From: a virus | Length of the DNA: 48,053 nt | Direction: 5' to 3' (one strand) | IMG/VR virus record: IMGVR_UViG_3300005056_000004 | Shown: in pieces, positions 1,839 through 48,053 of the stretch | Layout of the letters: each line of letters opens with the position of its first letter | How positions within the stretch are numbered: the first letter of the stretch is position 1 | Notes under the pieces: generated by a model | What the model was told of the DNA's origin: nothing | Databases searched by the model: none | What the model saw: the letters and a program-made list of their open reading frames with translations, nothing else | Made by a program: the position numbers and the translations under genes

Positions 1839-1879
1839 GGACTAGAATACTTATAATAATTTAAGATTAAAGGACACAA

Positions 1880-2641: not shown

Positions 2642-2660
2642 ATAAAACCAAGGAAAATAA

Positions 2661-2891
2661 ATGAGTGAAAATGAAGAAAATGAAGAAAATGAACCAAATG
2701 AAGTACCAAAGAAGAGAGATGAGTGGGAAATAAAAGAAGATTTAAGAGCTGTTAAGAGAGCTTTAAAAATATTTTCAGATAAAGAGAGACTCGAAGATGT
2801 TCAAGACTTAATCAGAGCAAACAAGAAAGTGGGTGATTCACTAGATGCTGTAGCTGATGGTGATATGCAAAAAGCACTCGGTTTTATGTAG
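2661..2891 (+). CDS. Small acidic protein, function unknown
   Basis: 76-aa ORF with an AAGGAAA RBS. N-terminus is SENEENEENEPNE. Confidence 0.5.
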   Translation: MSENEENEENEPNEVPKKRDEWEIKEDLRAVKRALKIFSDKERLEDVQDLIRANKKVGDSLDAVADGDMQKALGFM

Positions 2892-2897
2892 CTTTAA

Positions 2898-2919
2898 AAA
2901 GTAGGTTAGCCCCTACTTT
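2898..2919 (+). terminator. Hairpin after gene 2661-2891 (8-bp stem aaagtagg/cctacttt, 6-nt loop)
   Basis: The inverted repeat is read directly and begins 7 nt after the stop codon. The downstream T-run is only 3 nt, so it is a weak or partial terminator at best. Confidence 0.35.
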
Positions 2920-3052
2920 GAGTTAGGTAGCAATTTTAAAGAGAGCCTTACCCCTATTTGTGTCGCTCTTTAAGATGTGCTATCTACCTTAGGGTATAGG
3001 CAAAAGAAAAAAAATGTTTCACGACATATAAACTAAAAACAAAGGAATACGA

Positions 3053-20700: not shown

Positions 20701-20997
20701 AAAAATAGCTATGACCTTAAGAGTAAAAAAGCATTTATAGATGGTGGCAATGATGTAAAAGAGTATATGAGTTCTAAAGAGAAGCAAGCTCATGTTCAGA
20801 TAAGTAGAATGCTTTCTTCTTATTCTAAAGAACTTGCCAAGGTTAAGAACAGTGTTGAGCATATTACTTATAATAAAATGTTTTCTCAATCTCAAAAAGA
20901 AGAGAAAATAAATGCAGCTTATGCAGCTAAGACATCCGCGTTTGAAAAGATAGTTACAAGTGTAAATAAAAAACTTGATGAAGTTGAGGGGAAATAA
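8797..20997 (+). CDS. Giant 4,066-aa polyvalent protein with N6-adenine DNA methyltransferase, SNF2/DEAH helicase, HExxH metallopeptidase motif and a large uncharacterised C-terminal region. DarB-like, probably a virion-packaged or ejected protein
   Basis: Uninterrupted 12.2-kb ORF. MTase motif I is LEPSVGVGNFFG and motif IV is GNPPFGS. Helicase motifs are GTGKTFTA (I), LILDEAHEFKN (II), LTGTPISN (III) and QREGRIIRQGN (VI). The peptidase motif is AHEMAHY. It follows the portal gene. Confidence 0.85.
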   Translation: MPSPTNKFLTQMREEYPEYVDVDDTTLAKAYGKKHYAYLEEDVFLEKVGLHQSTLLDDAIDLVTPTEKPFTQDNNTTEPSLHDAIAPNVNGSMPATTKEQEKPFSVSSPAFTQSEDLTTTMTSSQMKDSIANETSLLLGEGKDFENPDREDYELGKRVVNATNKSTSGMAKGLFRVMGSTAYTLIRPFSQETATNIYESYMGSAKKISEYVYEDNKFDVKSTHTPNSIKEAVKAGGIFDIDTVQEVLLYGLDTTIESVPDMAEIATMFPAYVLGKAENSALERAKNDGRKEATNEDFLRVLPTATTSALLDKMGLEATTSKIFNDLVKTTAAGGIKAASIEITKKVRNGTLTEAVTEAGQTVIDKMGEEIGTKSGLSSVDKYAEEAAWASLAGGIGGGAMSGTTATGTIIFNEYSKADKEAQREAYIQDSYNKQMLGSSSLTSSIDDNRYVVFKNNLDTKVKNIQTEFQNLVINNPGLAVPVEAVNDIAVQKAVVQTAKEDGLNVSDNNGLNAIDAGFKELEAEIGTLDEEMTPKGSEVVNVEPIPIVKTPIDTARLTQLQETPADELTVDEQFELEDLQIEEQQIQKLGNDETALVDANSKLFQANKSEEAKIKSLGKDEIASDELTALIKDGFTFVKKGDSFENTTTSIGDRYIKYDEQGNKLTKYSTGDMEVEYSDGESVMLHPDGTHTSSLGFGGGITTAQDGTLLSDEEAILDEVKSRFITNNNSIKTIQVKVPTIDEARDKQRESKKSAPTHISEQLALNEKLYANDETALADANAKLFQANKSEEAKIKSLGKDEIKRLDDEYFTEKYSDVEVQRAYDFLPTATKQSSAVQASLDFAGTQNPLFNTKGSEEYIVPTWAKDIVSDTLRYDDIITAVTDAKNGNPTDTSFRVMDALHKAGDPHLENEIKRFDELSQRWDLNELEEAEQSELAKVLDKHLTGVEDGTITRAEESTRATQDETADNEVVQAVTEQGLQQTRSTKESDRSLPDSFAAQKPLVFDTAKVYDTRGINHENPHNKLSEIIKKDVARYVSQLAKNLGYDFEIDKKGKKKTFNGVNNNIAVVGGSISFKLFKPNSDAGIYVSLNYDSSMTDDGRYDTYFLNDKSLGHFFRTINGIDDHTGGKNNWFKTEDLTSDTFVNKIISLVEAQEKRDSDIINKEVKEDEKLEQPTERDDGRDILETLSTVDDGKSSGQSRRVQPDSIQGTDSKSQKQSIAPLPDTTGRQSNSDDGRVSDERLSASRSEVDGGEGTHSTVSRLEETADNFEIEDALGKGGLKTKFKTNIEAIKIVKKIQTKNYKPTKAEKTILSQYVGWGGLANAFVRPNGSITKGWEKESKELKELLSDDEYKEAKASTLNAHYTSKEIVDAIWSGVKQFGFKGGKVLEPSVGVGNFFGMMPTSLKSSTKLYGVELDGITSTIAQTLYPKATIQNKGFQDVELSNDFSLVIGNPPFGSVKLFDKNNKHLKDMSIHNYFFAKSMDALEEGGILAMVVSNGLMDASSSATREYLGSKANLLGAIRLPNNAFSKNANTEVTTDIIFLQKRYKSQESNIDTWRDIGEINDTPLNQYFVNNEAMMLGKWGKYGSMYRGDMPALVAFEGSTNTAGMLLPDALKSLPSNIVTHETIIKENTSEATFSGDVSKVRVGAMYVSDGYIYKRELDVDGEPQVREVTTKLNSKNKIVEYKPAELLKIKGMIEVVSVADELRVLQLNNRATDKDLARARKALNKSYEAFTTKHKFLNNATNKKLFEDDVRSPFLLALEKHYDKGVSAAVAKKSGELVKKESAVKADIFTKRTQNPYARPTKADSEQDALTVSLSEYGSINLGYMQELTAKSEAELISALDGFMYDDVDAGWVTKEEYLSGNVKEKFALTDNVKYKKALQEVIPKDIEAMDISITLGAGWVPKDIMADFVEFITGDDAAKVTLTPHNARWTISARVTSAKASQWGTKRRTATEILEQTMNLKQMKVQDNHGTSSQPQLVTNIDETTAVQEKQEVLKEEFKEWIFKTADRRTELAEIYNREFNTKTLREYDGSHINFVGKSEMINLRQHQKNGVWRMLQGGTVLFDHTVGTGKTFTAIAGVMELRRTGKANKPLVVVPNHLTSQWGKEWMELYPNANILVPTKADFSAARRKLLMSKIATGDYDAIIIAHSQLTSIQNDPEFETSFIEDEITRIQTSIDMLKEEDGKSRSVKNAEDSKAKLEERIKKLNDMQRDDNLNFAELGIDALILDEAHEFKNLTYTTGLQGVAGLGNPKGSKKAFDLFIKTQNILEKTNGNNVVFLTGTPISNTIAEMFTIQRYLDYSGLQDKNLDVFDAWVKQYAEIVSDWELSPSGKYKLNTRLRKFNNMPELITEYKQFGDVVTREDIPALPIPLIKGGRAANIVVERSDAQAAYIGVADKKGKYPEDSLVYRSEHLPKGKPKKGDDNMLSIMGLARKVALDMRLIDPSYEDNPDSKVNLTVKNTFEIYKMWNAKKGTQLIFCDLSTPKGAVAKEKAKIEALIKNAESADENVAEKAQAELDKLNPDDIDALNSKFSVYDDIKAKLIAKGIKESEVVFIHDAKTDLQKQELFAKVKSGKIRVLIGSTSKMGSGMNVQDKLVALHHIDVPWRPSDLEQREGRIIRQGNEFFKSDPEGFEVEIFRYATKNTLDSMMWQTIEAKANFIAQLRAGNLLDREVEDVSGEAINAAEMKAMSSGNPLVFEDMKLKKDIKKMEALKKSHDRNQYDLEDKIKKSTTLLSESKSILDAYALDAKLSKKLPKKFIMNINKKEYESREDAGKEILHIMLKTPERTSKLIGEIGGFKVYVETTGKGLSLSDTGIVTLSGSQDYEFSFNMEDQSYSGLTLKLENTIKNIATKMQEKELDTEYVKEQLPQLKEQVGEFKNSNKLDELRLRQKEVLAELRKKDDEPTDTVDEMSTGEVLEMIETLEGRANESFMKVPTKKEVKDTAANNHYSRVNGFDEAGVNYVPTYKTSGLPHRPATGTISIGNKEVSLPTYEKAMNADTIRVYLSEIIGNRLYQAKLKNKSALGKYKRDDSAIRVKNYSDIEVMAHEMAHYLDFFHNNKSKAAPDSFFRREILKNKEEIKALSYTTDPKNVISEGFAEFTRLWLTNYNSLTLVAPNMIKDFEAKLSKDKELNKKMTLLQESMHQYYYQGAGVAKYVGGELTPTAKKIQRSQAEIGKNFRQKSIDRIHSIKRIEAEIKGDVAVNARDSAYKSLQLVNGYSSIMYSAMNIGTPTVNVDGDISYSGKSLNDIFAPATTVDENRVKLMENYFVARRANELMEQGRENLITQEDIDADLGLAEIYPEFETIFTEYQEFNDAMLDFYVDMNLITSSQRENFQEMNKDYVPFHRINESVQYDGVATSKIGQRLTGGTSSLNSIMENIINGVESNIKEALISRGKSMFYEMLEESGMGGVYATKVSADSKVVQDNLKDQAKKVATVMAMMDIAVSKDGMILSGKSDATEIYDVSEIEENLLTNPKTMEVWTHGHPPTSADGYIDSVIINDKVVYFETKDIGIVDAMTSFSGSHYGTVVSGLMWMKNVMTWNITNNPLFYLTNFVRDTVSASVLSKNGFIPVITSLNGTYHFITRSKTYKEFMASGAGYGTRRTSLGGDIEAMKMLNVKRSLSVLDRVVDALEYGADMFEYGTRVGEFKLAQNSGKSNTQSAFEAREISTDFAIKGSDKTISGFMSTVPFMKAAILGLDKTARRIFSLNGEMKVSNALKFRNQLGELQTHKLKIYATGGMMAGLTLALWFNNKDDERYKRLTRDAKMMYWHFFIGEKHIKVPRPYDIGFVFSTVPELMADAIYTKEGKEAAKDFAWGVKNMFSIGDISGLFQPILDDMTNTNWTGSPIVPARMQNLDDLSDQYMNSTPLVYKMFGKITGASPIMTKHYVNGYLGLTARMMEEVTENILWNSKEWGARPFSKNAAEFMVSRFVAKEQPSRTIYSEKYYELVKKASAVKNSYDLKSKKAFIDGGNDVKEYMSSKEKQAHVQISRMLSSYSKELAKVKNSVEHITYNKMFSQSQKEEKINAAYAAKTSAFEKIVTSVNKKLDEVEGK
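12600..13450 (+). other. Methyltransferase module of the giant protein (gamma-class N6-A MTase motifs)
   Basis: GxGxF motif encoded around 12961-12990. NPPF is encoded at 13155-13166. Confidence 0.8.
14940..16700 (+). other. SNF2-family helicase module of the giant protein
   Basis: Walker A (VGTGKT) is encoded at 15019-15036 and DEAH at 15502-15513. Motif VI QREGRIIRQGN lies near 16655-16690. Confidence 0.8.
17965..17979 (+). other. HEMAH (HExxH) zinc-metallopeptidase motif in the giant protein
   Basis: The codons cac gag atg gct cac are read directly. The context is EVMAHEMAHYLDFFH. Confidence 0.5.
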
Positions 20998-21822: not shown

Positions 21823-21902
21823 AAAAGCACTCATATCTACTTATATAGATTTACATATAAATCAACCTATCCAAGGGGTTTGTAATTCTATCTTAATATA
21901 TA

Positions 21903-21971
21903 TTTATCTATAATTATATATACGAAAGGAACACCCAAGGGAACACCCAAGTATATATAATTATAGATAAA
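21903..21971. repeat. 21-bp perfect inverted repeat (21903-21923 / 21951-21971) enclosing a GGAACACCCAAG x2 tandem (21928-21951)
   Basis: tttatctataattatatatac and its exact reverse complement flank gaaaggaacacccaagggaacacccaa. It sits 15 nt upstream of the integrase start. Confidence 0.8.
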
Positions 21972-21985
21972 GTAGGGATTATGTT

Positions 21986-23059
21986 GTGTCGATAAATAAA
22001 GATGATTATCCATTTCAAATTGAAACTGGGTTATGGGCAAATAAAAAATATACAGTTTTTTTATATAATTTCAGATTTGAAAAAAAGAGGTATCGAGCAC
22101 TTATAGACTTAACAGACAAAGTGGGTTGGAACAAAAAAGATAAAATCTTTACTGCTCGTGCTGAACTTATGAAGATAAAGAACGGAAAGAAAGATGCAGT
22201 GCTTAGTGACAAAGTAACTCTTGATGAGTTTATGAAAAGCTTTTTTGAACTTCGACCAGATACAAACAATACTAAAACTCGTAAGAGCCATTATGATAGA
22301 TACGTTAGTCCTATTTGTGGAATGAAAAGAGTTGTTGATATTCGGCAGCTACACATAAAACAGAGTATAAAGAGTCAAGAGGAACTAGGTCTTGCACCTC
22401 GAACTGTTAAACAAACGCTCGAAGCACTCTCCCCTGCTTTTAAAAGTGCTATTGCAAACAGGCTTATATCTTACAACCCTCTTGATGGTATAGTTATAAA
22501 GCTCCCAAAAACTAAAAAAATAGTAAGTGAAGCTGGGGTCGAACTTAGAAAGATATATAATGCGATATTTGCAGAGTTTGGAGATGATCCTTTTTATCTC
22601 TCACTTTTTCTCTTTGCACTTCAAGGTAGGAGGAGAGGAGAAATACTTACTCTTAAGTGGGAAGATATAAGTATAGACAACTCTTACTACATACTTCGTA
22701 ACACAAAGAACAATGAAGAGCAAAAGATTTTTCTAGCTGAGATTATCAAAGACAATTTAAAAGATATACCTCGTGTAAGTGACTGGGTTTTTACATCTCG
22801 TAGGACTGGCTCACATCTTGTTGATATTCGCAAGGTTACAGGCAGGCTAAAAAAGAGACTCAAAGATGAGAATTTTGGCATACACTATTTGAGAAATGTC
22901 ATTGTTTCGGCTATGGCTGAGAAAGGTTTTGATAGTATGCATCTTAGCGGTGCTTTAGGTCACAACGACCCTAACACTATAAAGAAGTATCTCACTATGA
23001 ACTATTTGAAGTCTAGTGAGATGGCTAGTGGGGTTATTGATGGGATTGTTAAGAAGTAA
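21986..23059 (+). CDS. int: Tyrosine integrase
   Basis: 357 aa with a GTG start. The C-terminal catalytic region has RRRGEILTLKW (Arg), HYLRNVIV (HxxR) and LGHNDPNTIKKYL (His and Tyr). It is next to a tRNA-derived att core. Confidence 0.85.
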   Translation: MSINKDDYPFQIETGLWANKKYTVFLYNFRFEKKRYRALIDLTDKVGWNKKDKIFTARAELMKIKNGKKDAVLSDKVTLDEFMKSFFELRPDTNNTKTRKSHYDRYVSPICGMKRVVDIRQLHIKQSIKSQEELGLAPRTVKQTLEALSPAFKSAIANRLISYNPLDGIVIKLPKTKKIVSEAGVELRKIYNAIFAEFGDDPFYLSLFLFALQGRRRGEILTLKWEDISIDNSYYILRNTKNNEEQKIFLAEIIKDNLKDIPRVSDWVFTSRRTGSHLVDIRKVTGRLKKRLKDENFGIHYLRNVIVSAMAEKGFDSMHLSGALGHNDPNTIKKYLTMNYLKSSEMASGVIDGIVKK

Positions 23060-30078: not shown

Positions 30079-30672
30079 TTACCACTTTCTTAAAGTTTTC
30101 CCTCGGGAAATTTCCTCGTGTGTAACTGTTGCATATCTTGCTGTAGTGCTTATGCTCTTGTGTCCTATATCTTGTCTTATATGCTCTAGCGATAAGCCTA
30201 GCTGATGAGCACTGGTGATGTAGCCTGCTCTAAAACTATGAGTAGAATATAAATTTCCCAACACTCTATGTATGAAAGAGTTCATGTTGAGCTTGAGAGC
30301 ACTTACAGTCATCGGCTTGTCAGAGTTGTTTTTCGCAAAGAGATATCCATTGTCTAAAAACATCATTCTTCTTAACATCTCCACTTGAACACCATCACTA
30401 TCGAAGCTAATGAGCCTTGTCGTTTTTGTCTTCGTGTCATTAGATAAGGAGTGCTCATTTGTAAGTATCATCTGCACTACTTCCTCTTTCGTTACATCTA
30501 TAATCTCGCTAATACGACACCCAGTGAGATACAGAAGTGTAAAAGCATTTTGCAGTTTTACTTTAGAACTCGCTTGTAGTGTTATACTCTTGTGCGCAGC
30601 ATTCATAAGTCGCTCATACTCTTTTTTGAGGATCGGCTTTTTTGGTCGTGCTGTTCCTGTTGGTCTTGCCAT
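30079..30672 (-). CDS. Small tyrosine recombinase (197 aa, Xer/FimB-sized)
   Basis: LTGCRISEI (Arg), HSFRAGYITSA (HxxR) and IGHKSISTTARY (His and Tyr). No N-terminal arm-binding domain. Confidence 0.8.
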   Translation of the reverse strand: MARPTGTARPKKPILKKEYERLMNAAHKSITLQASSKVKLQNAFTLLYLTGCRISEIIDVTKEEVVQMILTNEHSLSNDTKTKTTRLISFDSDGVQVEMLRRMMFLDNGYLFAKNNSDKPMTVSALKLNMNSFIHRVLGNLYSTHSFRAGYITSAHQLGLSLEHIRQDIGHKSISTTARYATVTHEEISRGKTLRKW

Positions 30673-32243: not shown

Positions 32244-32447
32244 ATGAAAATAGAAAAACTAACAATTAAAGACATATCAAATTTTATAGACAAAAACGAG
32301 AACACTATTAGTGGATGGAGCACGAAACAACCGAAACTACTAGAAATAGTAAAACTCGGTGCATTCTGCAAAAAAAACGATTTAGATATAGAAAAAATAA
32401 CTAAGCTGCTTGAAGTCCAAGAAGCTGTTAGAGGGGTTGAGTCATGA
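32244..32447 (+). CDS. Small HTH-like protein (Cro-like position)
   Basis: 67 aa, divergent from the leftward operon. Contains IKDISNFIDKNENTISGW. Confidence 0.4.
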   Translation: MKIEKLTIKDISNFIDKNENTISGWSTKQPKLLEIVKLGAFCKKNDLDIEKITKLLEVQEAVRGVES

Positions 32448-32626
32448 ATATAGACTCTATAATGAAGTATATACTTGCAATAGTATTATTGTTTATTATG
32501 TTTTTGTGGTCTGGTGGCGTTTACGAAACTTTTATAGCTGAAAAAGTTAGAGTTAATAAGATTACAGGTGCAGTAGAAGTTCTTAAAAAAGAAAATGAAC
32601 TTGTAGGTTGGTATGATGTTAATTAA
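32444..32626 (+). CDS. Small single-pass membrane protein
   Basis: 60 aa with the hydrophobic helix YILAIVLLFIMFLWSGGV. ATGA overlap with the upstream gene. Confidence 0.45.
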   Translation: MNIDSIMKYILAIVLLFIMFLWSGGVYETFIAEKVRVNKITGAVEVLKKENELVGWYDVN

Positions 32627-33065
32627 AATAGTAACTATAAGTATAGCACTACTCTTTACAAGCACACTCTGTAGCGATACTATGGATTGGATGTATGAAG
32701 ATAAGTCTGGTGAACAACCGCAAGAAACCACAGTTATAAGAAGTGAATGTGTCAGACCTATAAAACTAAAGCTCATTACCGACAACAGAGATGTTCACCG
32801 CTACAATGAAGAGCTCTATAAATATAGTTCATGTATGACACAGTTTATAAATACTCAAGTATCTTTAGCTAATGCTGCTAAAGATACTCAAAGCAGATTA
32901 ATACATGTAGCATCTATAAAACAAGCCAAGAAAGACTTAACTAGCTACGATAGGCTAGATAATGTAGATCAAAGACAACGCCACGAAGAACTAGCAAATC
33001 TCAATGGGCTAGGTTATGATGAAGATAGAGATAAAGAGAAAAAAAAGTTAGAGAAAATGAAATAG
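32613..33065 (+). CDS. Putative secreted lipoprotein (moron, superinfection-exclusion candidate)
   Basis: Signal peptide MMLIKIVTISIALLFTSTLC with a lipobox-like STLC followed by S. Confidence 0.5.
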   Translation: MMLIKIVTISIALLFTSTLCSDTMDWMYEDKSGEQPQETTVIRSECVRPIKLKLITDNRDVHRYNEELYKYSSCMTQFINTQVSLANAAKDTQSRLIHVASIKQAKKDLTSYDRLDNVDQRQRHEELANLNGLGYDEDRDKEKKKLEKMK

Positions 33066-33254
33066 CTGAATATATTTTACAAAAACATTAAGTTTTAACC
33101 ATAGAAACTCTTTAGGCATACAAATGTATGTCTAGCACAGACAAAAGCCCTCACAGAGCCTCCTACAGCCATACAAATACCACAAAAACACCACAAACAA
33201 GCAAAAAAATCCCCCGAACCGACGAGCCGCACCTTTCCACCACCACCACAAAAC

Positions 33255-33277
33255 TCGCCGCCATTTGAAAATTTTTT
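33255..33277. repeat. Left copy of a 23-bp perfect inverted repeat (tcgccgccatttgaaaatttttt)
   Basis: Exact reverse complement of 34002-34024. Confidence 0.9.
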
Positions 33278-33569
33278 GGCTCTTTTTTGGTTATTTCGGT
33301 TTTTATGAGTATGAAAGATTTTTTTGAGATAGCTATTATATAAAAGAGTTGAACTTCAAAGGATTTGAGAGTTTGACTCCGTGAGAACTCTGTTTTTACG
33401 GAGGGAATTAGTAAGTGAGTTGGTTTTTTGGAGATTTTCCGTAGGTTTCGGATTTCGGATTAGCGTTTATTTTTCTTAGAGTTGATGGAACTGCATCATT
33501 TTTATGACATGATGAGTGGTCCTCAACTTTTTTAGCACTCTCGGGAAAATTGGTCGAGGTGGTCTAAAC

Positions 33570-33603
33570 ATATTTATTTATTTATTTTAATATATTTATT
33601 TTA
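33570..33603. other. AT-rich tract (candidate DNA-unwinding element)
   Basis: tatttatttatttattttaatatatttatttta, with no G or C. Confidence 0.4.
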
Positions 33604-33744
33604 AGGTGGGAGTGCAAATGTTTAAGTTTAGTCCACTCTTTAAGGTTTAAGCCTTATTTTAGTGGAATATGGCTTAAGGTTAGAGCTTATGAGGTCGTTT
33701 ATGTGATAGTGTGAGTGATTTGTCGAAGTGCTTGCTCTTTCTGC

Positions 33745-33775
33745 AGTAGGTTAATGGTGTAGTAGGTTAATGGTG
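33745..33775 (+). repeat. Tandem 15-mer agtaggttaatggtg x2 (period 16)
   Basis: Read directly in the ORF-free region. Confidence 0.8.
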
Positions 33776-34001
33776 CTTATTATGTGGTGGTGGATTGCTA
33801 TTTGATAGTAGATGTTGGTGTCGTGCTTTTTCTCGTTTATGTTCTGTATGAGCGGTGGGGAGGGTACTTCCCCAAGTGTACTTCTGTCTGAACTACATAT
33901 GAGAGAAGTGCTAGATGAAAATTCATATTTGAGTTGTAAGTTCACAAAAGAGCGTTATTTCTTAAAGCCTGAAAGTAAGTTTCTCAAGATCACTTTTTCA
34001 T

Positions 34002-34024
34002 AAAAAATTTTCAAATGGCGGCGA
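34002..34024. repeat. Right copy of the 23-bp perfect inverted repeat (aaaaaattttcaaatggcggcga)
   Basis: Exact reverse complement of 33255-33277. The CAAATGGCGGCGA part recurs at 35029-35041 and, with one mismatch, at 35379-35391. Confidence 0.9.
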
Positions 34025-34035
34025 CTTATCGCAAT

Positions 34036-34058
34036 GGGGGGGGGTCGTATTTTTTTTT
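34036..34058 (+). repeat. Homopolymer pair: G9 (34036-34044) followed by T9 (34050-34058)
   Basis: Counted directly as gggggggggtcgtattttttttt. This is the only G/C run longer than 5 that I noticed in the window. Confidence 0.85.
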
Positions 34059-34174
34059 AAAATTGCGGAGAAAACACCAGGGAGTAAAATATTTTTAGTA
34101 AATTATGCAGCTACTTCAAAAACAGTTTTGGAGCAAATCTAGCTAGTTCTAAATTGGAACATACTGAGAATAAT

Positions 34175-34238
34175 ACTTAATTTTATTAAGGTAAAAATGT
34201 CCTCAATAACTTAATTTGATTAAGGTAAAAATGTCCTC
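34175..34238 (+). repeat. Tandem direct repeat, 30 nt x2, period 34 (acttaattt[t/g]attaaggtaaaaatgtcctc)
   Basis: 34175-34204 and 34209-34238 differ at one position. Confidence 0.85.
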
Positions 34239-34252
34239 TCTATATATAATAC

Positions 34253-34276
34253 CTATTCTTTTATAAAAAAGAATAG
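34253..34276 (-). terminator. Hairpin (10-bp stem ctattctttt/aaaagaatag, 4-nt loop) just downstream of the repressor gene
   Basis: Read directly. It lies 20 nt after the stop of the minus-strand gene 34296-34703, with A/T-rich flanks on both sides. Confidence 0.5.
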
Positions 34277-34295
34277 TATATACAGCATTTTTTTC

Positions 34296-34703
34296 TTATA
34301 TCTTTGCCATCTCTTGGAACTCTTTTAGTCTCACTATTATCTGCTCCATAAATTTATCTGGAGCATACTCCAGTAGATTAATGAGTTCTTGCATTTTAGT
34401 AGAGTTACTTATCTTTTCTAAAAGTAGTGGATCTATGGAAGAGTTAAAAGCTAGTTCTATTTTAGATATATCATTTAGGAGTATCTCTGACTCACTAAGC
34501 TTCATATTTCCATTACCTGTAAGTAACCAGTCGATAGATACTGAATACTTATTTCTGATGAGCTTTGATATGTTTGATGGTATTTCTCTTGTACCATTTA
34601 TATAGTGAGTATAACTATTTTGTGTTATTCCAAGCTCATGTGCAAAATCTTTTTTATTAAGTTCTAAACTCGCTCTGAGTTCTTCTAGGGGTACATTTAT
34701 CAT
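34296..34703 (-). CDS. XRE/cI-family HTH repressor
   Basis: LRASLELNKKDFAHELGITQNSYTHYINGTREIP is a canonical HTH_3 motif. It is divergently oriented to a rightward operon. Confidence 0.8.
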   Translation of the reverse strand: MINVPLEELRASLELNKKDFAHELGITQNSYTHYINGTREIPSNISKLIRNKYSVSIDWLLTGNGNMKLSESEILLNDISKIELAFNSSIDPLLLEKISNSTKMQELINLLEYAPDKFMEQIIVRLKEFQEMAKI

Positions 34704-34731: not shown

Positions 34732-34760
34732 TTGACATAATCACTCAATAAGTATATAAT
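34732..34760 (+). promoter_or_regulatory. Consensus sigma70-type promoter (TTGACA-17 nt-TATAAT) driving the rightward operon
   Basis: ttgaca at 34732-34737 and tataat at 34755-34760 with a 17-nt spacer. An 18-bp quasi-palindrome, atataattgcaactatat (34754-34771, 16/18 symmetric), overlaps the -10. Confidence 0.6.
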
Positions 34761-34811
34761 TGCAACTATATTTATATATTATAAAACAAATGACACATTA
34801 GGGGCTTAAAC

Positions 34812-35051
34812 ATGGAAATTAAATCTATCACTAAAACTTTTGAAATTCCAATGAAAAAAGAAGAAGTTGTTCAGATACTAAGAATAACAACACTTGCACT
34901 CGATAGAGCGATACGTAATAAAAAAATATCTTATTTGAAAGTAGGACATACTTTTACATTCACGGCTGAACAAGTAAATGCTTATATTGAACAAAATACA
35001 TTTCATTCAAAATATGAAAAAAATAAAACAAATGGCGGCGAAAATAATTAA
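34812..35051 (+). CDS. Excisionase/MerR-like HTH_17 DNA-binding protein
   Basis: VQILRITTLALDRAIRNKKISYLKVGHTFTFTAEQVNAYIE fits the Xis/AlpA-type winged helix. Confidence 0.6.
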   Translation: MEIKSITKTFEIPMKKEEVVQILRITTLALDRAIRNKKISYLKVGHTFTFTAEQVNAYIEQNTFHSKYEKNKTNGGENN

Positions 35052-35692
35052 TGCTTTATAACCTTTATGCAAACCAAGAGATGGGTCGGATTGAGAAGAT
35101 TAGTGGAAATGCTGTTTTAGTCTTTGAGGCTATAAAGCAGCTTATGGCACTTAATTATATTGAGATTGTTATTTATGAAGACAAAAGACATTATATATTG
35201 CATCAAGAGCTTATACTCCAACAAATCCCACTTTTTATTAAAACTACTAAAACACTTAGTCGAGCTATCGTAGAACTAAAAGAAGTAGACCTCATTATCT
35301 ATAGCGGCACAAACAGACAGCCTGCTTATGCTTTTACAGATAAGGCAATGTCGTATATCACAAGGTCCACTGGTTCCGCAAATGGCGGTGAAACTATTTT
35401 GGCTGAAAGTCAGAAACAAAAAAAGAAACCACTCTTTGATTTAAACCGCCCTACAAAACTATCAGACCTTAAACCAGAGTATTATCAACTCTTAGAAGTT
35501 CATGCTAAAAAAATGTGTGTCACGAAAAATATTTCCTTTGAAGAGTTCGGTAGCTTTGTCGATCATCATGGTTCCAAAGGGACAAAGTTCATTAACTATC
35601 TGAGAGCATTTTCAACATGGCTTCGTAACTATAAAAAATACAATCAAGCAAATGATGCAGAAAGTGGCACTATTGCTGGTGTGAAGCTTTAA
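35051..35692 (+). CDS. Putative replication initiation or organiser protein (winged-helix-like)
   Basis: 213 aa, upstream of the helicase. The gene body contains the GC-rich motif copy at 35379-35391, and another copy (35029-35041) abuts its start. The functional call is positional. Confidence 0.3.
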   Translation: MLYNLYANQEMGRIEKISGNAVLVFEAIKQLMALNYIEIVIYEDKRHYILHQELILQQIPLFIKTTKTLSRAIVELKEVDLIIYSGTNRQPAYAFTDKAMSYITRSTGSANGGETILAESQKQKKKPLFDLNRPTKLSDLKPEYYQLLEVHAKKMCVTKNISFEEFGSFVDHHGSKGTKFINYLRAFSTWLRNYKKYNQANDAESGTIAGVKL

Positions 35693-37800: not shown

Positions 37801-38220
37801 ATGAAACAGTTTATTGGAACAAAGATTGTAAAAGCAAAAGTTATGAATAGATTAGATTATAATTTATTTAGAGGATGGAAATTGCCAGATGATGAAAATG
37901 GTTCAGATGATGGATATTTAGTTGAATACTTAGATGGTGGAGAGCCAAACACTAAAGAATATAATGGATATGTCTCATGGAGTCCTAAAGAGCAGTTTGA
38001 AAATGCTTATAAAGAGAGTGGTAACTTATCGTTTGGAGATGCAATTACATATTTGAAACAAGGTAAAAAAGTTGCTAGAAAAATATGGAATGGTAAAAAG
38101 ATGTTTCTATTTTATGTTCCATCAAGTTCTTATATTGCAATGAAAACTACACAAGACAATGTAGTCCCGTGGTTAGCAAGTCAAATAGATATGTTAAGTG
38201 ATGATTGGGAGGTCCTATAA
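37801..38220 (+). CDS. Two-domain protein whose C-terminal half resembles DUF2829 (Tad2-like)
   Basis: FGDAITYLKQGKKVARKIWNGKKMFLFYVP matches my recollection of the DUF2829 signature (FGEALxALKxGKKVARxGWNGK). The N-terminal half, IGTKIVKAKVMNRLDYNLFRGWKLPDDE...GYLVEY...GYVSWSPKEQFENAYK, is a common phage module. Confidence 0.55.
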   Translation: MKQFIGTKIVKAKVMNRLDYNLFRGWKLPDDENGSDDGYLVEYLDGGEPNTKEYNGYVSWSPKEQFENAYKESGNLSFGDAITYLKQGKKVARKIWNGKKMFLFYVPSSSYIAMKTTQDNVVPWLASQIDMLSDDWEVL

Positions 38221-40931: not shown

Positions 40932-42062
40932 ATGAGTTTTATAAAAAATGTTAATGCAGTAGCAGCAGACTTGGCAGGCGGAGCAGCATCAAAAATAGCA
41001 ATTATAAACAAAAACATAATTTCATTTAGTGCAAAAGTTATTTCTAGCCTTAAAGAGCTAGACACTCACACAACAGCAAAAGAGAATCAACTAGACACTT
41101 TCAACACTGCCAAAAAAGCAGAACTAGATACTCACACAACAACAAAAGAGAAGCAGCTAGACACTTTCAACACTGCTAAAAAAGCAGAACTAGACACTCA
41201 CACAACAACAAAAGAGAATCAACTAGACACTTTCAACACTGCGAAAAAAGCAGAACTAGACACTCACACAACAACAAAAGAGAATCAACTAGACACTTTC
41301 AACACTGCGAAAAAAGCAGAACTAGACACCCACACTGCAACAAAAGAGACTCAACTAGATACTTTTAACACTGCGAAAAAAGCAGAGCTAGACACTCACA
41401 CTGCTGGAATAGTAGATGATGTTCATGCTACTAAAACAAAAACTCATAGATACTTACTAGAAGTAGAAGAAAATGCTTATGATGTAGATAAAAAATTTAC
41501 ATATATAAAAGATATAGAAGTTCGTAAAGTAAAAGCATTAGATGAAACAACAGAGATACGAAAATCTGATTTAGATAAACATACAAATATAAAAAAAGTT
41601 GTATTAGATAACTATGTTGATGATACTAAAAAAGCAGAACTAGATACTCACACTGTAGCAAAAGAGAATCAATTAGATGATTTCAACACTGTTAAAAAAG
41701 CAGAACTAGACACTCACACCACAACAAAAGAGACTCAATTAGATGATTTTAACACTGTTAAAAAAGTAGAGCTAGACACTCACACTACAACAAAAGAGAC
41801 TCAACTAGACACTTTCAACACTGCCAAAAAAGTAGAACTAGACACTCACACAACAACAAAAGAGAATCAGCTAGATAACTACGAAGCCACAAAAGAACTA
41901 GAATTAAATGATTATAAAGTTATAAAAATAGATGAAATTGAAGTGTATAAAAACAAAAAAGTTGATGAGATTAATAATCAAGTAAACACTATTTACTCTG
42001 ACACATTTAAAGTTGCACGAAGATTTAAAATGCAGACTTTCGGCATAGGCTTAAATTTATAG
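40932..42062 (+). CDS. Fibre-like protein built from 22-aa (66-nt) tandem repeats
   Basis: KKAELDTHTTTKENQLDTFNTA units are present in two arrays. Confidence 0.65.
   Translation: MSFIKNVNAVAADLAGGAASKIAIINKNIISFSAKVISSLKELDTHTTAKENQLDTFNTAKKAELDTHTTTKEKQLDTFNTAKKAELDTHTTTKENQLDTFNTAKKAELDTHTTTKENQLDTFNTAKKAELDTHTATKETQLDTFNTAKKAELDTHTAGIVDDVHATKTKTHRYLLEVEENAYDVDKKFTYIKDIEVRKVKALDETTEIRKSDLDKHTNIKKVVLDNYVDDTKKAELDTHTVAKENQLDDFNTVKKAELDTHTTTKETQLDDFNTVKKVELDTHTTTKETQLDTFNTAKKVELDTHTTTKENQLDNYEATKELELNDYKVIKIDEIEVYKNKKVDEINNQVNTIYSDTFKVARRFKMQTFGIGLNL
41055..41402 (+). repeat. 66-nt in-frame tandem repeat array 1 (5 full units plus a partial one)
   Basis: Units start at 41055, 41121, 41187, 41253 and 41319, with a partial unit at 41385. 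Confidence 0.9.
41637..41900 (+). repeat. 66-nt in-frame tandem repeat array 2 (4 units, the last degenerate)
   Basis: Units start at 41637, 41703, 41769 and 41835. Confidence 0.85.
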
Positions 42063-42116: not shown

Positions 42117-43637
42117 ATGGGTTTAAAAAGCACAAGAGATACACTTGTCAGTAGGATTGAAGAAGTTGCTGGCACAAGTACAGACCTTGAACAGTTAAGC
42201 TTTGCAGGGGCAAGCTTACAAAAATTAGTCGATATCAACTTTGATATTTTACCAGAAGATACAGCATACAATATAGGTGTTCCAGGAACAATGGGATATG
42301 GTGTATCTGCAATGCACGATGAGTTAGTTCCAGCTGGGTATATGAAACTATCTAGTCATGATGATGTTGCTCATCCAAATTATGGTTGTGTGATAGATTT
42401 GAATGGAAGTGTATTTGAGTATATTGCTCCTTTTTTCTTCAAAATGATTGGAAATAGTATTACTACTAGCCCTATATATGTAAGTGGATATGTAAAACCT
42501 CGTGCTTTTTACGACTCGCCAAATGGATTTTTACACTTTAAATACATGGCTGGTAATGTTGGTGGAAAACTTGTTTCTAAACAAAATATCGACCCAGTAT
42601 CAACATCAACTTCACATAACCCTATTGGGAATCTATTATCTGCTCCATCAAATAATTATGGTGGATTTGTTGATGCTTGTAAATCAGCAGGCTACAAAGC
42701 AACTACTATATTTGAATGGACTGCACTACAACTTTTAGCACTTGCTCAGTCGCAAAGTGGTGCATCTTCTGCACTATGTGCATTTAATGATGTTGCACCA
42801 TTTTTTCCAAAAGGAAATCTTGGAAATGCTTTACACGATGTAAATGATACAAGTGTAACTTTTACCGGTAGCGGCTATTCAAACTGTGCTTTGACAGGTA
42901 GTGGTTCAAACTTTGCAAAGACAACACACAATGGTCAGAACTCCGGTATAGCAGATATGAACGGAAATATGTGGAAGATTGTAACAGGACTTACATACTT
43001 AGCAAAAAATAATGCGACTTGTGCAATAAATACAAAAGATGTATCTATGCCTAGCCACGGTTTAGCAATTAATGATGTAATTTACTTCGGTGGTACACCA
43101 TCTAGTGGCTCTACTTATAACACTGCTGCTTATACAGTAACCGCAGTAACTGATGGCAATAACTTTACAGTAGGAACTGTACTTCAAAGAGCTATCGTGT
43201 CTACTGACGGAGTTTATAGTTCAAGATATTTCAGAATTTTAAAAACTTCTGTGAATCCACATGATCTTACAAGTGTAAATCTACTTGATGATTCTAAATA
43301 TGATTTGCTAAATCTTACTGGAATGATTGATTCAAATACTGGAAGTACTTATTTTGGGAATGGAGCAGAGACTGTTCTTAACTTTTCTACAGATACAAAT
43401 TCAATAGCATACAAAGCTGGAAGTGTTGGAATTCCAACTCCAACAGGAACAAGTGCATCTGGAGCTACTATATTTGGGAATGACTATATTTACAAATATA
43501 TGAGACATGGTCTCGTGCCGATTGTCGGTGGGTATTGGAATGACACTTCCAATGCTGGGGTTTTCGCTCTTGATTTGTACGGTGCTTCGGCTAATTCGCA
43601 CAGCGCTGTTGGTGGTTTCGCCTCTGTTTCCTTGTAG
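42117..43637 (+). CDS. DGR target protein: receptor-binding tail fibre with a C-terminal C-type-lectin-fold variable region
   Basis: 506 aa. IADMNGNMWKIV resembles the CLec/FGE-type DMxGNVWEW motif. The C-terminus VGGYWNDTSNAGVFALDLYGASANSHSAVGGFASVSL carries the VR. Confidence 0.85.
   Translation: MGLKSTRDTLVSRIEEVAGTSTDLEQLSFAGASLQKLVDINFDILPEDTAYNIGVPGTMGYGVSAMHDELVPAGYMKLSSHDDVAHPNYGCVIDLNGSVFEYIAPFFFKMIGNSITTSPIYVSGYVKPRAFYDSPNGFLHFKYMAGNVGGKLVSKQNIDPVSTSTSHNPIGNLLSAPSNNYGGFVDACKSAGYKATTIFEWTALQLLALAQSQSGASSALCAFNDVAPFFPKGNLGNALHDVNDTSVTFTGSGYSNCALTGSGSNFAKTTHNGQNSGIADMNGNMWKIVTGLTYLAKNNATCAINTKDVSMPSHGLAINDVIYFGGTPSSGSTYNTAAYTVTAVTDGNNFTVGTVLQRAIVSTDGVYSSRYFRILKTSVNPHDLTSVNLLDDSKYDLLNLTGMIDSNTGSTYFGNGAETVLNFSTDTNSIAYKAGSVGIPTPTGTSASGATIFGNDYIYKYMRHGLVPIVGGYWNDTSNAGVFALDLYGASANSHSAVGGFASVSL
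43510..43623 (+). repeat. DGR variable repeat (VR)
   Basis: Gapless 114-nt alignment to 44088-44201 with 101 identities. 12 of the 13 mismatches lie opposite TR adenines. Confidence 0.9.
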
Positions 43638-43649
43638 TAGGGAACGATA

Positions 43650-44054
43650 GTGAACGGGGTAAGCAAAGGTGAAGTTTCTTTAAATAGAAAGTTTGTGGAA
43701 ATGATGAAGTTACTTAATGTGTATCTCAATCATTTTCCACGATATGAAAAATTTGCACTCTCTAATGATATACGAAATACAGCTTACAGAGTGTATGACT
43801 TAATAACAGAGTGCCAAAAGAGATACTATAAAAAGAGTTCACTTACTTCTCTTGATATAGAACACGAGAAGCTTAGAATGCAGATAATCCTAGCGAACGA
43901 ACTCGGATATTTTGCATTTAAAGATGGTTCTAAAAACTCTAAACTTGCACGACCTGAACATAGATTTTTAGCTATCTCTCAACTTATTGATGAGATAGGT
44001 AGGATTATAGGTGCTTGGATAAACAAGCTAAGAAAGACAAACGAGTTTACATAA
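43650..44054 (+). CDS. avd: Accessory variability determinant (Avd, four-helix-bundle family)
   Basis: NHFPRYEKFALSNDIRNTAYRVYDLITEC resembles the Avd/S23-like FPKxEKYxL...R signature. It is small and basic and lies between VR and TR. The true start may be ATG 43701, giving 117 aa. Confidence 0.75.
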   Translation: MNGVSKGEVSLNRKFVEMMKLLNVYLNHFPRYEKFALSNDIRNTAYRVYDLITECQKRYYKKSSLTSLDIEHEKLRMQIILANELGYFAFKDGSKNSKLARPEHRFLAISQLIDEIGRIIGAWINKLRKTNEFT

Positions 44055-44087
44055 AACTCAATGGGCTACTGCATTAACATGATTTGT

Positions 44088-44201
44088 GTCTCGTGCCGAT
44101 TGTCGGTGGGAATTGGAATAACACTTCCAATGCTGGGGTTTTCGCTCTTAATTTGAACAATTATTCGGCTAATTCGAACAACAATGTTGGTGGTTTCGAC
44201 T
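44088..44201 (+). repeat. DGR template repeat (TR), noncoding
   Basis: Intergenic between avd and the RT gene. It contains 26 adenines, 12 of which are substituted in the VR. Confidence 0.9.
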
Positions 44202-44296
44202 TCGTTCTAACCTGAAATATCTTAAAGATAAAATTGGAACAAAGGGATGTAGAGTCCAGCTATAAGCGAAATTTTAAAGAGGAGATTTGTTAGAGT

Positions 44297-45343
44297 ATGA
44301 GAAATATTAAGTATGGACTAGAAATTCCAAATACCTCGAAAAGATACGGTGGACTGTACCAGCTTGCTTTTACAAAAGAGAACCTTTACAAAGCTTATTT
44401 AGAAGCTAGAAAGGGTAAGAGAAATAAGGTTGGTACATATTTATTTGAAAAAAACATAGGTGAAAACATTGATAACTTATTTGAAGAGTTACAGTGTTTT
44501 TCATATAAGCCTAGAGAGTATAGAACTTTTACAGTTTATGAACCAAAAGAGAGAGTTATTAAGGCACCTCATTTTAGAGATTTAGTAGTGCAGCACTCTA
44601 TTTATAGAGTGATTTATAATATTTTCAATAAGTCATTTATAGATACTAGCTTTGCTTGTAGGAAAAATGGTGGAACTCATAAGTGTAGTGTTTATACCCA
44701 GACTCAGATGAAGAAATATAATGGAAATCTTTACTTTATCAAGCTTGATATTAGAAAGTTTTTTTACTCTATAGATAGAGGAATACTTAGAAAGTTATTT
44801 GAGAAGAAAATAAAAGATAAACAAATGATAGACATTATGACTCTGTTTACAGAAGATGATAGTTCTAGTGTTGGCATACCAATTGGTAATCTTTTAAGTC
44901 AGCTATATTCTCTCATATATCTTAACGAGTTGGATCACTTTGTAAAAAGAGAACTTAAAATAAAAAGCTATGTTCGTTACGTAGATGATTTTGTGCTCAT
45001 CGGTCTCACTCTTGATGAAGCAAAAATAGCAAAAGAGAAGTGTGAGAAGTTTGTACAGGACAAATTAAATCTTGAATTATCTCATTGGCATATACAGAAG
45101 ATAAAAAGAGGTATTAACTTTGTCGGATATAGGACATGGAAAAATGTAAAGTTTGTTAGAAAGCACTCTTTATACAAGTTCAAAAGAGCAACAAAAAAAC
45201 AAAAGGTCGATTCGATTATATCTTTAATCGGTCATGCAAAAGGTACAAAAAGTTTGAGTTATTTCAAAAATATACTTGAAAACTATATGCCTTATTATAA
45301 AAATTTAATACCGACTAGGAGTCGAAAATGTTTAGATATGTAA
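44297..45343 (+). CDS. DGR-type reverse transcriptase
   Basis: 348 aa. The catalytic motif is YVRYVDDFVLIG (YxDD). The DGR-clade hallmark is IPIGNLLSQLYSLIYLNELD (IGxxxSQ). IKLDIRKFFYSI is motif A. Confidence 0.9.
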   Translation: MRNIKYGLEIPNTSKRYGGLYQLAFTKENLYKAYLEARKGKRNKVGTYLFEKNIGENIDNLFEELQCFSYKPREYRTFTVYEPKERVIKAPHFRDLVVQHSIYRVIYNIFNKSFIDTSFACRKNGGTHKCSVYTQTQMKKYNGNLYFIKLDIRKFFYSIDRGILRKLFEKKIKDKQMIDIMTLFTEDDSSSVGIPIGNLLSQLYSLIYLNELDHFVKRELKIKSYVRYVDDFVLIGLTLDEAKIAKEKCEKFVQDKLNLELSHWHIQKIKRGINFVGYRTWKNVKFVRKHSLYKFKRATKKQKVDSIISLIGHAKGTKSLSYFKNILENYMPYYKNLIPTRSRKCLDM

Positions 45344-47664: not shown

Positions 47665-48053
47665 TGGCAACAATTATCACGAAAGAGATAGAGAATATAT
47701 TTGATACATTCTTAGAAAAGACAATAGCAAAACTTACAACGCTTTATAAAGATACAAACATGGAAGATGAGGCTTTTGCAACTATATCCGGTGCTGCTAT
47801 TACATCAGCAATGAACTCAAGTGTCAATGCTCACGACTCACTGAAGAGAGGTCAGCTCATAGATAAACAGATTGCTACAGAAGCTAAAAAGACTCTCGAC
47901 ATAGTAAGCTTAACAGCAGTTCGTGATGCTCAGTCAGATAAAGACTTACTTGTAAAACAAGAGCAGATAGATATGAGCGTTTTACAACAAGACACAGAAG
48001 TTAAAAAAGCTTTAGACATAGCAAGCTCAACAGCGGTTCGTGATGCTCAGTCA
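47664..48053 (+). CDS. N-terminal part of a wrap-around structural gene (294 aa after circularisation, continues into 1-594)
   Basis: ATG at 47664 follows AAGGAG and overlaps the TAA stop of the upstream fibre gene. The frame stays open to the window end and is in phase with ORF 19-594 through the 99-nt overlap. Confidence 0.7.
   Translation, partial: MATIITKEIENIFDTFLEKTIAKLTTLYKDTNMEDEAFATISGAAITSAMNSSVNAHDSLKRGQLIDKQIATEAKKTLDIVSLTAVRDAQSDKDLLVKQEQIDMSVLQQDTEVKKALDIASSTAVRDAQS
47955..48053. repeat. Terminal overlap, right copy (identical to 1-99)
   Basis: Same as the left copy. A 99-nt overlap is typical of a circular contig from a k=99 de Bruijn assembly (inference). A true direct terminal repeat cannot be excluded. 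Confidence 0.95.

Follow-up and report, generated by a model that had tools for sequence, protein, structure and literature searches.

What does a 1.2-kb stretch without genes do in the genome of a temperate phage of sulfur-oxidizing bacteria? The stretch in question, positions 33066-34295 of IMG/VR virus record IMGVR_UViG_3300005056_000004, lies between a cluster of three small moron genes and the repressor gene; the whole stretch of DNA that was analyzed, 48,053 nucleotides, is referred to here as the window. A previous sequence-only reading had described the lack of a credible open reading frame (ORF), a peculiar strand composition and several repeats, and had proposed a replication origin, a non-coding RNA or a switch; it had assigned none of the elements to a class that it could name. 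Our analysis favors, at a probability of about one half, the reading that 33066-34295 is a conserved cis-acting DNA module, most likely a candidate phage replication origin with control sites. Among the three earlier proposals, the origin gained from the covariation of iteron-like repeats with a protein, from an unstable duplex and from fixed spacing, whereas a structured RNA found neither an Rfam match nor covariation in its favor, and the switch was met by a single orientation of the segment.

The region is conserved in layout and spacing among Campylobacterota phages

Relatives were collected from viral, genome and metagenome collections using the 20-nt core of an inverted repeat within the region, the sequence pattern of its core block, and a search with a 62-aa protein encoded downstream. 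Approximately 25 distinct related phage contigs (single loci carry L numbers below) were found to share the layout, a strand-composition switch and a nearly gap-free spacing. The named organisms among these relatives were Campylobacterota metagenome-assembled genomes (MAGs), namely Sulfurimonas, Arcobacter, Campylobacterales and Sulfurospirillum. Between the window and its relatives, the non-coding DNA was 65-80 % identical, and the neighboring genes were equally so. Nothing similar to the region was found in deposited phage genomes or in the plasmid collection. The remaining exact 20-mer matches, L017 and L035 among them, were unrelated (coding) sequence, and their number was that expected by chance.

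The order of the parts was invariable. The first half runs from a hairpin through a G-poor, A+C-rich flank of ~110 nt, the left arm of the inverted repeat, T/G-rich boxes and a second hairpin to a G-rich stretch with TTTCGG. The second half consists of a variable part, an A/T tract, four TTAAG(G) boxes, another variable part, a G-run/CCCC element, the right arm or arms, tandem repeats, an A/T-rich hairpin and, finally, the 3' end of the repressor gene. The composition switch was present in 13/13 full-length relatives and reached into parts that cannot be aligned; the G-poor flank was likewise found in 13/13 relatives, with (G+T-A-C)/length ranging from -0.27 to -0.64. Because layout, spacing and composition switch recur in all 13 full-length relatives, the features listed here exceed what chance would produce. 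The arm and the TTTCGG cluster were 183-185 nt apart in 10/16 loci, the block comprising the A/T tract and the TTAAG boxes aligned without gaps over 139 columns in 10/14 sequences, and the A/T tract at 33564-33603 was almost unchanged across 14 relatives. The second hairpin (33377-33403) was retained in 9/14 relatives (z -2 to -5), with the minus strand being weaker in 7 of them. Three features that had been noticed in the sequence-only reading, a 16-mer tandem, the pair ttaagcc-N17-ggcttaa and a G9/T9 pair, were not conserved in the relatives.

The claim that the region has no credible ORF held up on closer inspection. Its longest ORFs are 64 aa (33751-33945, minus strand) and 63 aa (33812-34003, plus strand), which overlap and are mutually antisense, and no ORF was common to more than 4/12 other relatives. 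An intact gene at this place, which the sequence-only reading would have taken as the sign of a decayed pseudogene, was looked for in the relatives and was not found.

Two loci show the element in other surroundings. Positions 2296-2516 of L015, a 292-kb contig of a Sulfurospirillum MAG, hold a lone A+C flank, left arm and first T-rich block in the chromosome; the surroundings contain no phage genes, a proC-like gene lies ~500 nt downstream, and the copy is probably a prophage remnant. In L010, from an Arcobacter MAG, the left two-thirds of the element (800-1300), through the fourth TTAAG box, are joined to 1523-3290, a homologue of the structural gene at 5864-7735 of the window. The contig has a run of N, and this junction is a large deletion or rearrangement.

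Tandem repeats covary with a linked winged-helix protein

Every phage was found to carry tandem repeats beside the right arm and nowhere else in the locus, either as 2 units at 34-35 bp, which are often palindromic, or as 3-5 units at 21-23 bp. These periods are whole numbers of helical turns. In the window, the repeats are those at 34175-34238, which had been described as a 30-nt tandem repeat and which do recur, with a 34-bp period. The kind of repeat matched the clade, one of two, of the N-terminal domain of a 213-aa protein in 10/10 phages; the gene for this protein heads the block of rightward genes that ends in a DnaB-like helicase. Unit similarity followed N-domain identity (Spearman 0.31, Mantel p = 0.02), while the corresponding values for repressor identity were -0.09 and p = 0.70. 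Repeat kind was discordant with repressor type, as L038 combines an S24-peptidase repressor with 35-bp units and L007 a short HTH_3 repressor with 21-bp units. It was also independent of the cro-like gene: the cro-like proteins of L008 and L038 are unrelated, and their units are very similar. The tandem repeats were rejected as operators of the adjacent repressor because they are absent from the PR/PRM promoter region and discordant with repressor type.

L080, a prophage-like locus on a 422-kb Campylobacterales MAG contig, was fetched afterwards as a test of this rule. It encodes a clade-A protein together with an S24 repressor, and its repeats were as predicted from the clade: 2 units at 34 bp, with a unit, GTGCAAAATTTGCAC, that resembles the units of L008 and L038. 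These two phages also carry the N-domains closest to that of L080, with 47-50 % identity. The covariation suggests that the repeats at 34175-34238 behave as putative iterons of the 213-aa protein.

Sequence searches with the 213-aa protein in Pfam, PHROG and the PDB gave no match, and none of its ten homologues carries an annotation. Its AlphaFold model (mean pLDDT 73) comprises a winged helix at residues 1-105, a linker at residues 107-126 with pLDDT below 50, and a helical C-domain. The best PDB fold matches, which were weak, were the N-domains of staphylococcal plasmid initiators bound to iterons (4pql, E = 8e-3; 5kbj, E = 4e-2), and MarR-type winged-helix proteins scored nearly as well. 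From the model, the fold matches and the place of its gene at the head of the block, the 213-aa protein looks like a putative replication initiator.

The inverted repeat is one instance of a polar motif

The arms of the inverted repeat, at 33252-33277 and 34002-34027, are 26 nt in length with one mismatch (96 % complementarity) and lie 724 nt apart. The 23-bp perfect repeat of the sequence-only reading is their core, and the strand composition does switch at its left copy. The 20-nt core used in our searches occurs exactly 2 times in the window, compared with an expectation of 0.01. Beyond what had been described before, we found that the arm belongs to a recurring asymmetric motif, A6-W4-CAAATG-NN-GSCGA, copies of which are also present before and inside the replication gene. 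Per phage, there is 1 left-facing copy, the left arm, and there are two to five right-facing copies: the right arm or arms (three in L003 and two in L005), a copy at the end of the cro-like gene, and one or two copies within the 213-aa gene. The phage studied here has 4 copies in the window, all within the 2.2 kb from 33.2 to 35.4 kb. The offsets of the right-facing copies from the gene for the 62-aa HTH_17 protein were nearly constant, at about -1088, -770 and -480, and the motif was found in every relative with enough sequence upstream of this gene. A homologue of the 62-aa HTH_17 protein in L077 lies in a different genome context and has no motif.

Copy 3, which forms the last codons of the cro-like gene, was retained in relatives in differing reading frames (..NGGE.. 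or ..QMAAN), even in unrelated cro-like proteins, and the copies inside the 213-aa gene coincide with segments that are predicted to be disordered in the structure model. Since neither the reading frame nor the protein family matters for its retention, the constraint on the motif acts on DNA or RNA and not on protein. The 23-nt polar motif thus offers a clean example of DNA- or RNA-level constraint overriding protein coding. The motif was also conserved across phages with two unrelated types of repressor, which makes it unlikely to be an immunity operator. In all relatives, both the composition and the orientation of the motif are mirror-symmetric about the inner segment. The arm showed no internal dyad symmetry, and a literature search on the motif returned chance matches only.

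A partial copy of the motif, ATAAAACAAATG, was observed at 34781-34792, directly behind the -10 box of PR in the leader of the cro-like mRNA; its sequence equals that of 35023-35034, the first 12 nt of copy 3. No parS site resembling TGTTTCACGTGAAACA was found at up to 3 mismatches. The phage encodes a ParB of the chromosomal Spo0J type, which may bind the motif; the motif itself lacks palindromic symmetry.

The region as a candidate replication origin

The origin reading is favored by the combination of iteron-like repeats tied to a linked winged-helix protein, unstable duplexes, fixed spacing without an ORF or RNA fold, and mirror symmetry. Unstable duplexes were found at two places. Among the 48,000 positions of the genome, 33564-33603 ranked 2 for low duplex stability over segments of both 30 and 40 bp, and 34241-34300 ranked 2 over segments of 60 bp. 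The A/T tract at 33564-33603 is a candidate for an unwinding element or for a Campylobacterota-type -10 region, and 34241-34295 is a candidate second unwinding element.

In the simplest form of the model, the 213-aa winged-helix protein would bind the phage-specific repeats at 34175-34238 as iterons, as the covariation suggests. The A/T-rich DNA at 34241-34295, the A/T tract at 33564-33603, or both, would then melt, after which the DnaB-type helicase and the DnaG-type primase of the phage itself would be recruited. The conserved 700 bp between the arms, with the TTTCGG, TTAAGG and G-run boxes, would serve as the scaffold of a nucleoprotein complex. More speculatively, the arms might mark the borders of this complex, and a conserved factor might bind the motif and act in a strand- or direction-specific manner. 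The motif copies before and inside the initiator gene could then couple initiator expression to that factor.

Several points weigh against an origin. The covariation of repeats and protein comes from 11 phages and its statistics are modest. The fold matches of the 213-aa protein are weak, with MarR-type proteins nearly as good, and it could therefore be a transcription factor with the repeats as its operators; this phage has only two repeat units, each of them palindromic, which is also typical of operators. The origins of lambda O and of RepA_N plasmids lie within the initiator gene, which here contains single copies of the motif only. The ~700 bp of conserved sequence exceed the need of known iteron origins. 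No link has been established between such extreme strand composition and origins of this size; the composition could instead represent Rho-dependent insulation of convergent transcription units, and prolonged exposure as single strands or R-loops would yield it too. Finally, the cumulative GC skew of the genome simply tracks gene orientation.

A more elaborate version of the origin, which we consider improbable, gives the motif a direct role. The arms and right-facing copies would be strand-specific loading or priming signals for the phage DnaB and DnaG (compare the ssi sites of IncQ plasmids), or else the seed and the targets of a trans-acting antisense RNA that sets the level of the initiator; the asymmetry of composition would arise from long-lived single-stranded or R-loop DNA at an unusually large bipartite origin. 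If the loading-signal or antisense version were true, it would be a new origin architecture common to a whole family of Campylobacterota phages. If the simplest version is true, the region is a phage origin, in itself a common kind of element, whose form here is unusual and well conserved. To our knowledge, metagenomes are almost the only source of phages that infect Sulfurimonas, Arcobacter and related Campylobacterota, and we know of no mapped origin among them. A defined cis module with a cognate binding protein makes for a testable origin and may provide a shuttle-vector backbone for hosts that have no genetic tools.

Comparison with known systems

The details of the iteron, IncQ and stoperator/C1-operator systems used in this comparison are general background. 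The region resembles the iteron theta origins of plasmids and plasmid-prophages (P1 oriR/RepA, staphylococcal RepA_N plasmids such as pSK41, and lambda ori/O) in having tandem repeats of helical period beside easily melted A/T-rich DNA, and in that the sequence of the repeats varies with the DNA-binding domain of a winged-helix protein linked to them. As in those systems, a flexible linker joins the N-domain of this protein to its C-domain, helicase functions are encoded after it, and ParA/ParB are encoded in the genome. In contrast to those systems, where the repeats lie inside or directly beside the initiator gene, the repressor and cro-like genes here stand between the two, a distance of ~800 bp; this phage has two units only, and no cluster of DnaA boxes was seen. 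Iteron origins have no counterpart of the extra 700 bp of conserved DNA that lies between inverted copies of a second motif shared by the whole family, and no sequence similarity to any plasmid was found. Inspection for a sigma-54 promoter, an IHF site or a DnaA box gave no fit.

The oriV of the IncQ plasmid RSF1010, with iterons, an A/T-rich region and ssiA/ssiB on opposite strands, is similar in that an inverted sequence occurs once per strand beside iterons and A/T-rich DNA and that the replicon encodes its own helicase and primase. It differs in that the arms here are 500-1000 bp apart instead of adjacent and have no hairpin, the primase is of the DnaG type and not RepB', and further copies lie in the downstream operon; the comparison covers the layout.

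In extrachromosomal mycobacteriophage prophages, an ORF-free, transcribed segment of ~0.4-1 kb was reported to be needed for prophage maintenance and to be sufficient for autonomous replication (Wetzel et al. 2020, PMC7157519). As in the present case, the segment is ORF-free and belongs to a temperate phage with parAB. However, those prophages (PMC7157519) have neither an integrase nor an initiator protein, whereas this phage has an integrase and a putative initiator. Host phylum and phage family also differ, and there is no sequence relation.

The stoperators of mycobacteriophage L5 and the C1 operators of P1 likewise consist of a non-palindromic site of 13-23 bp that is repeated, also within coding sequence, with an orientation tied to transcription. 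The motif described here differs from them in having its 4 copies confined to 33.2-35.4 kb and not spread genome-wide, and in spanning two repressor types. The fimS/FimB-FimE system and the invertons of Bacteroides share with the region inverted repeats around 0.5-1 kb and a short tyrosine recombinase encoded in the genome, but no second orientation was found in any copy, the arms are not homogenized, and additional direct copies exist.

Alternative explanations

It is also possible, although in our view unlikely, that the region encodes a regulatory RNA. Such a transcript, long and mostly without structure, and either G+U-rich from the plus strand or a C-rich 3' extension of the repressor mRNA from the minus strand, would prime replication through an R-loop or use the 13-26-nt arm as an antisense seed on the motif copies just ahead of and within the initiator gene. 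The right-facing copies are complementary to the arm, and in every relative, whatever the reading frame, one of them precedes the initiator start codon by 10-22 nt. Hairpin 33377-33403 is strand-specific, its G.U pairs making the plus-strand form the more stable one, and, as noted above, most relatives retain it. The depletion of C on the plus strand reaches into the non-alignable spacers, as would be the case for a transcript selected to escape Rho or to form R-loops. Small antisense immunity RNAs are found in P4, P1 and N15. Moreover, ORF-free transcribed origins have been documented in extrachromosomal mycobacteriophage prophages (PMC7157519), which keeps an RNA-assisted version of the favored origin in play.

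Against an RNA locus, no promoter above chance was found inside the region, where the best candidate had 9/12 matches compared with 12/12 for PR, and the A+C-rich flank cannot hold a plus-strand sigma-70 promoter. The left arm is canonical in L013 and L038 despite variants common to their right-facing copies, and the arms within one phage differ at up to 5/23 positions. The check for RNA families and covariation that the sequence-only reading had proposed also turned out negative. Rfam covariance models, run on the whole region, gave no match at the gathering score, and at E <= 10 only two chance-level matches of 16-17 bits. RNAalifold on 14 sequences gave -0.92 kcal/mol and 4 pairs for the left block, in which the hairpin at 33377-33403 was not recovered as a consensus, and -0.55 kcal/mol with 7 invariant and 0 compensatory pairs for the core block, these two blocks being the best conserved. 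Fold z-scores for the whole region were -3.1 and -3.4, alike on both strands; this excess of about three standard deviations above shuffles is accounted for by the segregated composition together with the inverted repeats. A long-range fold between the A+C flank and the G+T interior was rejected, as its energies equaled those of shuffled flanks and the complementarity between flank and interior is purely compositional. A search for tRNA and tmRNA genes found none, and a tRNA-like look of 33880-33900 on the minus strand did not hold.

Next in rank, and again unlikely, is a transcriptional insulator or spacer. The moron genes (rightward) and the repressor gene (leftward) are convergent units around the region, and C-rich, G-poor stretches between them would load Rho, with the repeats and the motif acting as operators for lysogeny regulators. 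The composition is rut-like for both incoming directions and conserved in 13 relatives, termination itself being a prediction, and hairpins are found at both borders. The palindromic units of this phage, L008, L038 and L080 resemble operators, and MarR-type regulators are near fold matches of the 213-aa protein. However, a Rho terminator needs no fixed spacing or invariant boxes over 700 bp. In addition, the absence of the repeat units from the PR/PRM region does not suit such operators, and the repeat type tracks the first gene of the replication block and not the repressor or cro-like gene.

An invertible switch, in which a 197-aa tyrosine recombinase (30079-30672) would act on the 26-bp inverted repeats to flip the 724-bp segment, is very improbable. 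Inverted repeats are present in all relatives, the segment size of 478-1036 bp fits known invertons, and the recombinase has a catalytic domain only, is of FimB/FimE size and is syntenic in relatives; L061 and L068 even carry the same variant (CAAAAGG) in both arms. Nevertheless, the inner segment had one orientation in the assemblies of ~25 relatives and of four near-identical phage copies from different samples. The arms differ at 0-5/23 positions within a phage, are often nearer to the same-side arm of other phages, and are not homogenized. Direct copies of the right arm (L003, L005) and the copies downstream mean that recombination would give deletions. The lack of dyad symmetry within the arm and the place of the recombinase, 2.6 kb away beside parAB, where dimer resolution is likelier, also count against a switch.

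Two peptides were considered as traces of a gene. The MAASF... peptide that begins at the ATG of the arm was rejected as a hidden gene because its frames, starts and stops fail in relatives; ORFs that begin at the ATG of the motif have random lengths, between 4 and 101 aa, and the minus-strand ORF from the left arm is interrupted or startless in L002, L003, L008 and L010. The ...GGxGxSPS..SELxMR... peptide of 33850-33911 was rejected because of stops and single-base indels in relatives, and since all three frames of this block are interrupted there, it is not coding. Least probable of all is a decayed, frameshifted or recoded gene, or a miniature inverted-repeat transposable element with terminal inverted repeats: although the G+T-rich strands give long stop-free stretches and hydrophobic peptides (MAASFVVVVE...) that are open in several relatives, and the 26-nt terminal repeats are flanked on both sides by ACT, few relatives share any ORF, all frames are interrupted, single-base indels occur within conserved blocks, and the element has one syntenic position in every phage; host genomes, plasmids and the phage collection did not show it elsewhere, and scans of viral, genome and metagenome collections returned it in this context only, apart from chance matches.

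Features and composition of the region

The coordinates of the region's parts, of the motif copies downstream and of the surrounding genes are collected in Table 1.

Table 1. Coordinates of the gene-free region, the downstream motif copies and the surrounding genes in the window.
Feature	Position	Strand or direction	Remarks
Structural genes	up to 21.7 kb	rightward	
Integrase gene	21986-23059		357 aa
Leftward block	23.1-32.1 kb	leftward	DnaG-type primase, ParB, ParA, 197-aa tyrosine recombinase, AntA antirepressor
Three small genes (moron cluster)	32244-33065	rightward	
Gene-free region under study	33066-34295		between moron genes and repressor gene
Hairpin	33114-33135		ends the upstream plus-strand genes
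A+C-rich left flank	33137-33251	+	plus strand G 9 %, T 9 %, C 41 %
Left arm of inverted repeat, AAAAAATTTTCAAATGGCGGCGA	33252-33277	-	sole left-facing motif copy; strand composition switches here
T/G-rich block	33278-33376		boxes TTATTTCGGTTTTT (33291-33304) and ATAAAAGAGTTGAAC (33340-33354), from alignments
Hairpin CTCCGTGAGAAC-TCT-GTTTTTACGGAG	33377-33403	+	-15.9 kcal/mol, z = -5.2
G-rich stretch ACGGAGGGAATT..GAGTTGGTTTTTT, then direct TTTCGG heptamer repeats	33398-33459		conserved; heptamer repeats at 33435-33459
A/T tract ..ACATATTT..TATTTTAATAT..	33564-33603		conserved; partial dyad symmetry; pure A/T in 33570-33603
Four direct TTAAG(G)TT boxes	33599-33685	+	fixed spacing of ~21, 18 and 33-34 bp; spacers divergent
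Tandem 2 x 16 nt	33742-33773	+	this phage only; in a variable part
G-run / GGGG..CCCC palindrome, then CTGAACTAtATATGAGAGAAtTGC	33850-33911		conserved
Right arm of inverted repeat	34002-34027	+	first right-facing motif copy; 10-55 bp from tandem repeats in relatives
G9-TCGTA-T9 tract	34027-34050	+	not conserved in the family
Two 30-nt units, 34-bp period	34175-34238	+	each with palindrome CTTAAT-N3-ATTAAG; putative iterons of the 213-aa protein
A/T-rich stretch	34241-34295		hairpin 34253-34275 is the repressor-gene terminator, conserved in relatives
HTH_3 repressor gene	34296-34703	minus	
Promoter PR	34732-34760		perfect TTGACA-17-TATAAT
Rightward block after PR		rightward	order: cro-like gene, 213-aa gene, 148-aa gene, 62-aa HTH_17 gene, DnaB-like helicase, terminase
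Motif copy 3	35019-35041	+	last codons of cro-like gene, 10-22 nt before the 213-aa gene start
213-aa protein gene	35051-35692	+	winged-helix N-domain, disordered linker, helical C-domain; heads the block ending in a DnaB-like helicase
Motif copy 4, CAAATGGCGGTGA	35379-35391	+	codons of the disordered linker of the 213-aa protein

The compositional claims of the sequence-only reading agreed with our values. For the tract described as almost purely A+C from about 33137, (G+T-A-C)/length was -0.63 over 33137-33256, which is 4.4 standard deviations under the genome mean and among the most extreme values in the 48 kb. The stretch 33278-33900, described as G+T-rich and C-poor on the plus strand, had a GC skew of +0.3 to +0.53 and an AT skew of -0.2 to -0.38; over the inner 450 nt, C and G make up 24 % and 10 % of the minus strand, respectively.

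The pure A/T tract and the hairpin at 33377-33403 were both recovered where they had been seen, with the energy given in Table 1, and the G9/T9 pair, previously mentioned with no position, was located. Nearly all of the listed features lay at the positions stated or a few bases away. Two other descriptions were revised. The tandem 15-mer reported at 33745-33775 is indeed a tandem repeat, but its unit is 16 nt and its position is that given in Table 1. The two halves of ttaagcc-N17-ggcttaa are present, but what is conserved in relatives is a set of four direct TTAAG(G) boxes and not a hairpin. The G-run of the 33850-33911 block is G9-G10 in L001, L002 and L007.

Variation was also observed among the four near-identical phage copies. 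Two single-nucleotide polymorphisms lie at 33753 and 33756, in the 16-mer tandem, and 2 of the four copies have a 46-nt insertion after 33972. The G9 run at 34027-34035 is G10 in one near-identical copy, for which slippage or an assembly error is possible.

Genome context and other observations

The window is a complete temperate phage genome of ~48 kb, the ends of which overlap (37-98 and 47991-48052 match one stretch of a relative). The genes flanking the region were found as the sequence-only reading had them, with the HTH_3 repressor adjacent, the DnaG primase and ParA/ParB to the left and the DnaB-like helicase to the right.

The 197-aa tyrosine recombinase adjoins parA/parB and is separate from the 357-aa integrase; a role in dimer resolution is a guess. 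The least stable 30-40-bp duplex of the genome is at 21883-21922, in the gap just upstream of the integrase gene, and this is likely the attP region. An attP site within 33066-34295 was rejected, as the integrase is 11 kb off, the least stable duplex lies upstream of it, and the lone chromosomal copy in L015 is probably a remnant.

Other observations concern genes at a distance from the region. Within the structural block, a single ORF of 4066 aa spans 8797-20997. Its product, read on an identical contig, contains Eco57I methyltransferase, ResIII/SNF2 helicase and LPD38 domains, and it is therefore a giant polyvalent protein. Directly after the helicase gene, 37801-38220 encodes a 139-aa protein with a Tad2-like domain (PF11195, anti-Thoeris). 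A diversity-generating retroelement occupies 43510-45343, with a bAvd-like gene at 43650-44054 and a reverse transcriptase at 44297-45343. Its template repeat is at 44088-44201, and its variable repeat, at 43510-43623, forms the 3' end of the gene at 42117-43637; 13/13 mismatches between the two repeats fall at adenines of the template repeat. The gene at 40932-42062 contains many internal tandem repeats of ~66 nt at 41054-41927, seen as a ladder of self- and cross-matches, and the copy number of these repeats varies between near-identical phage copies.

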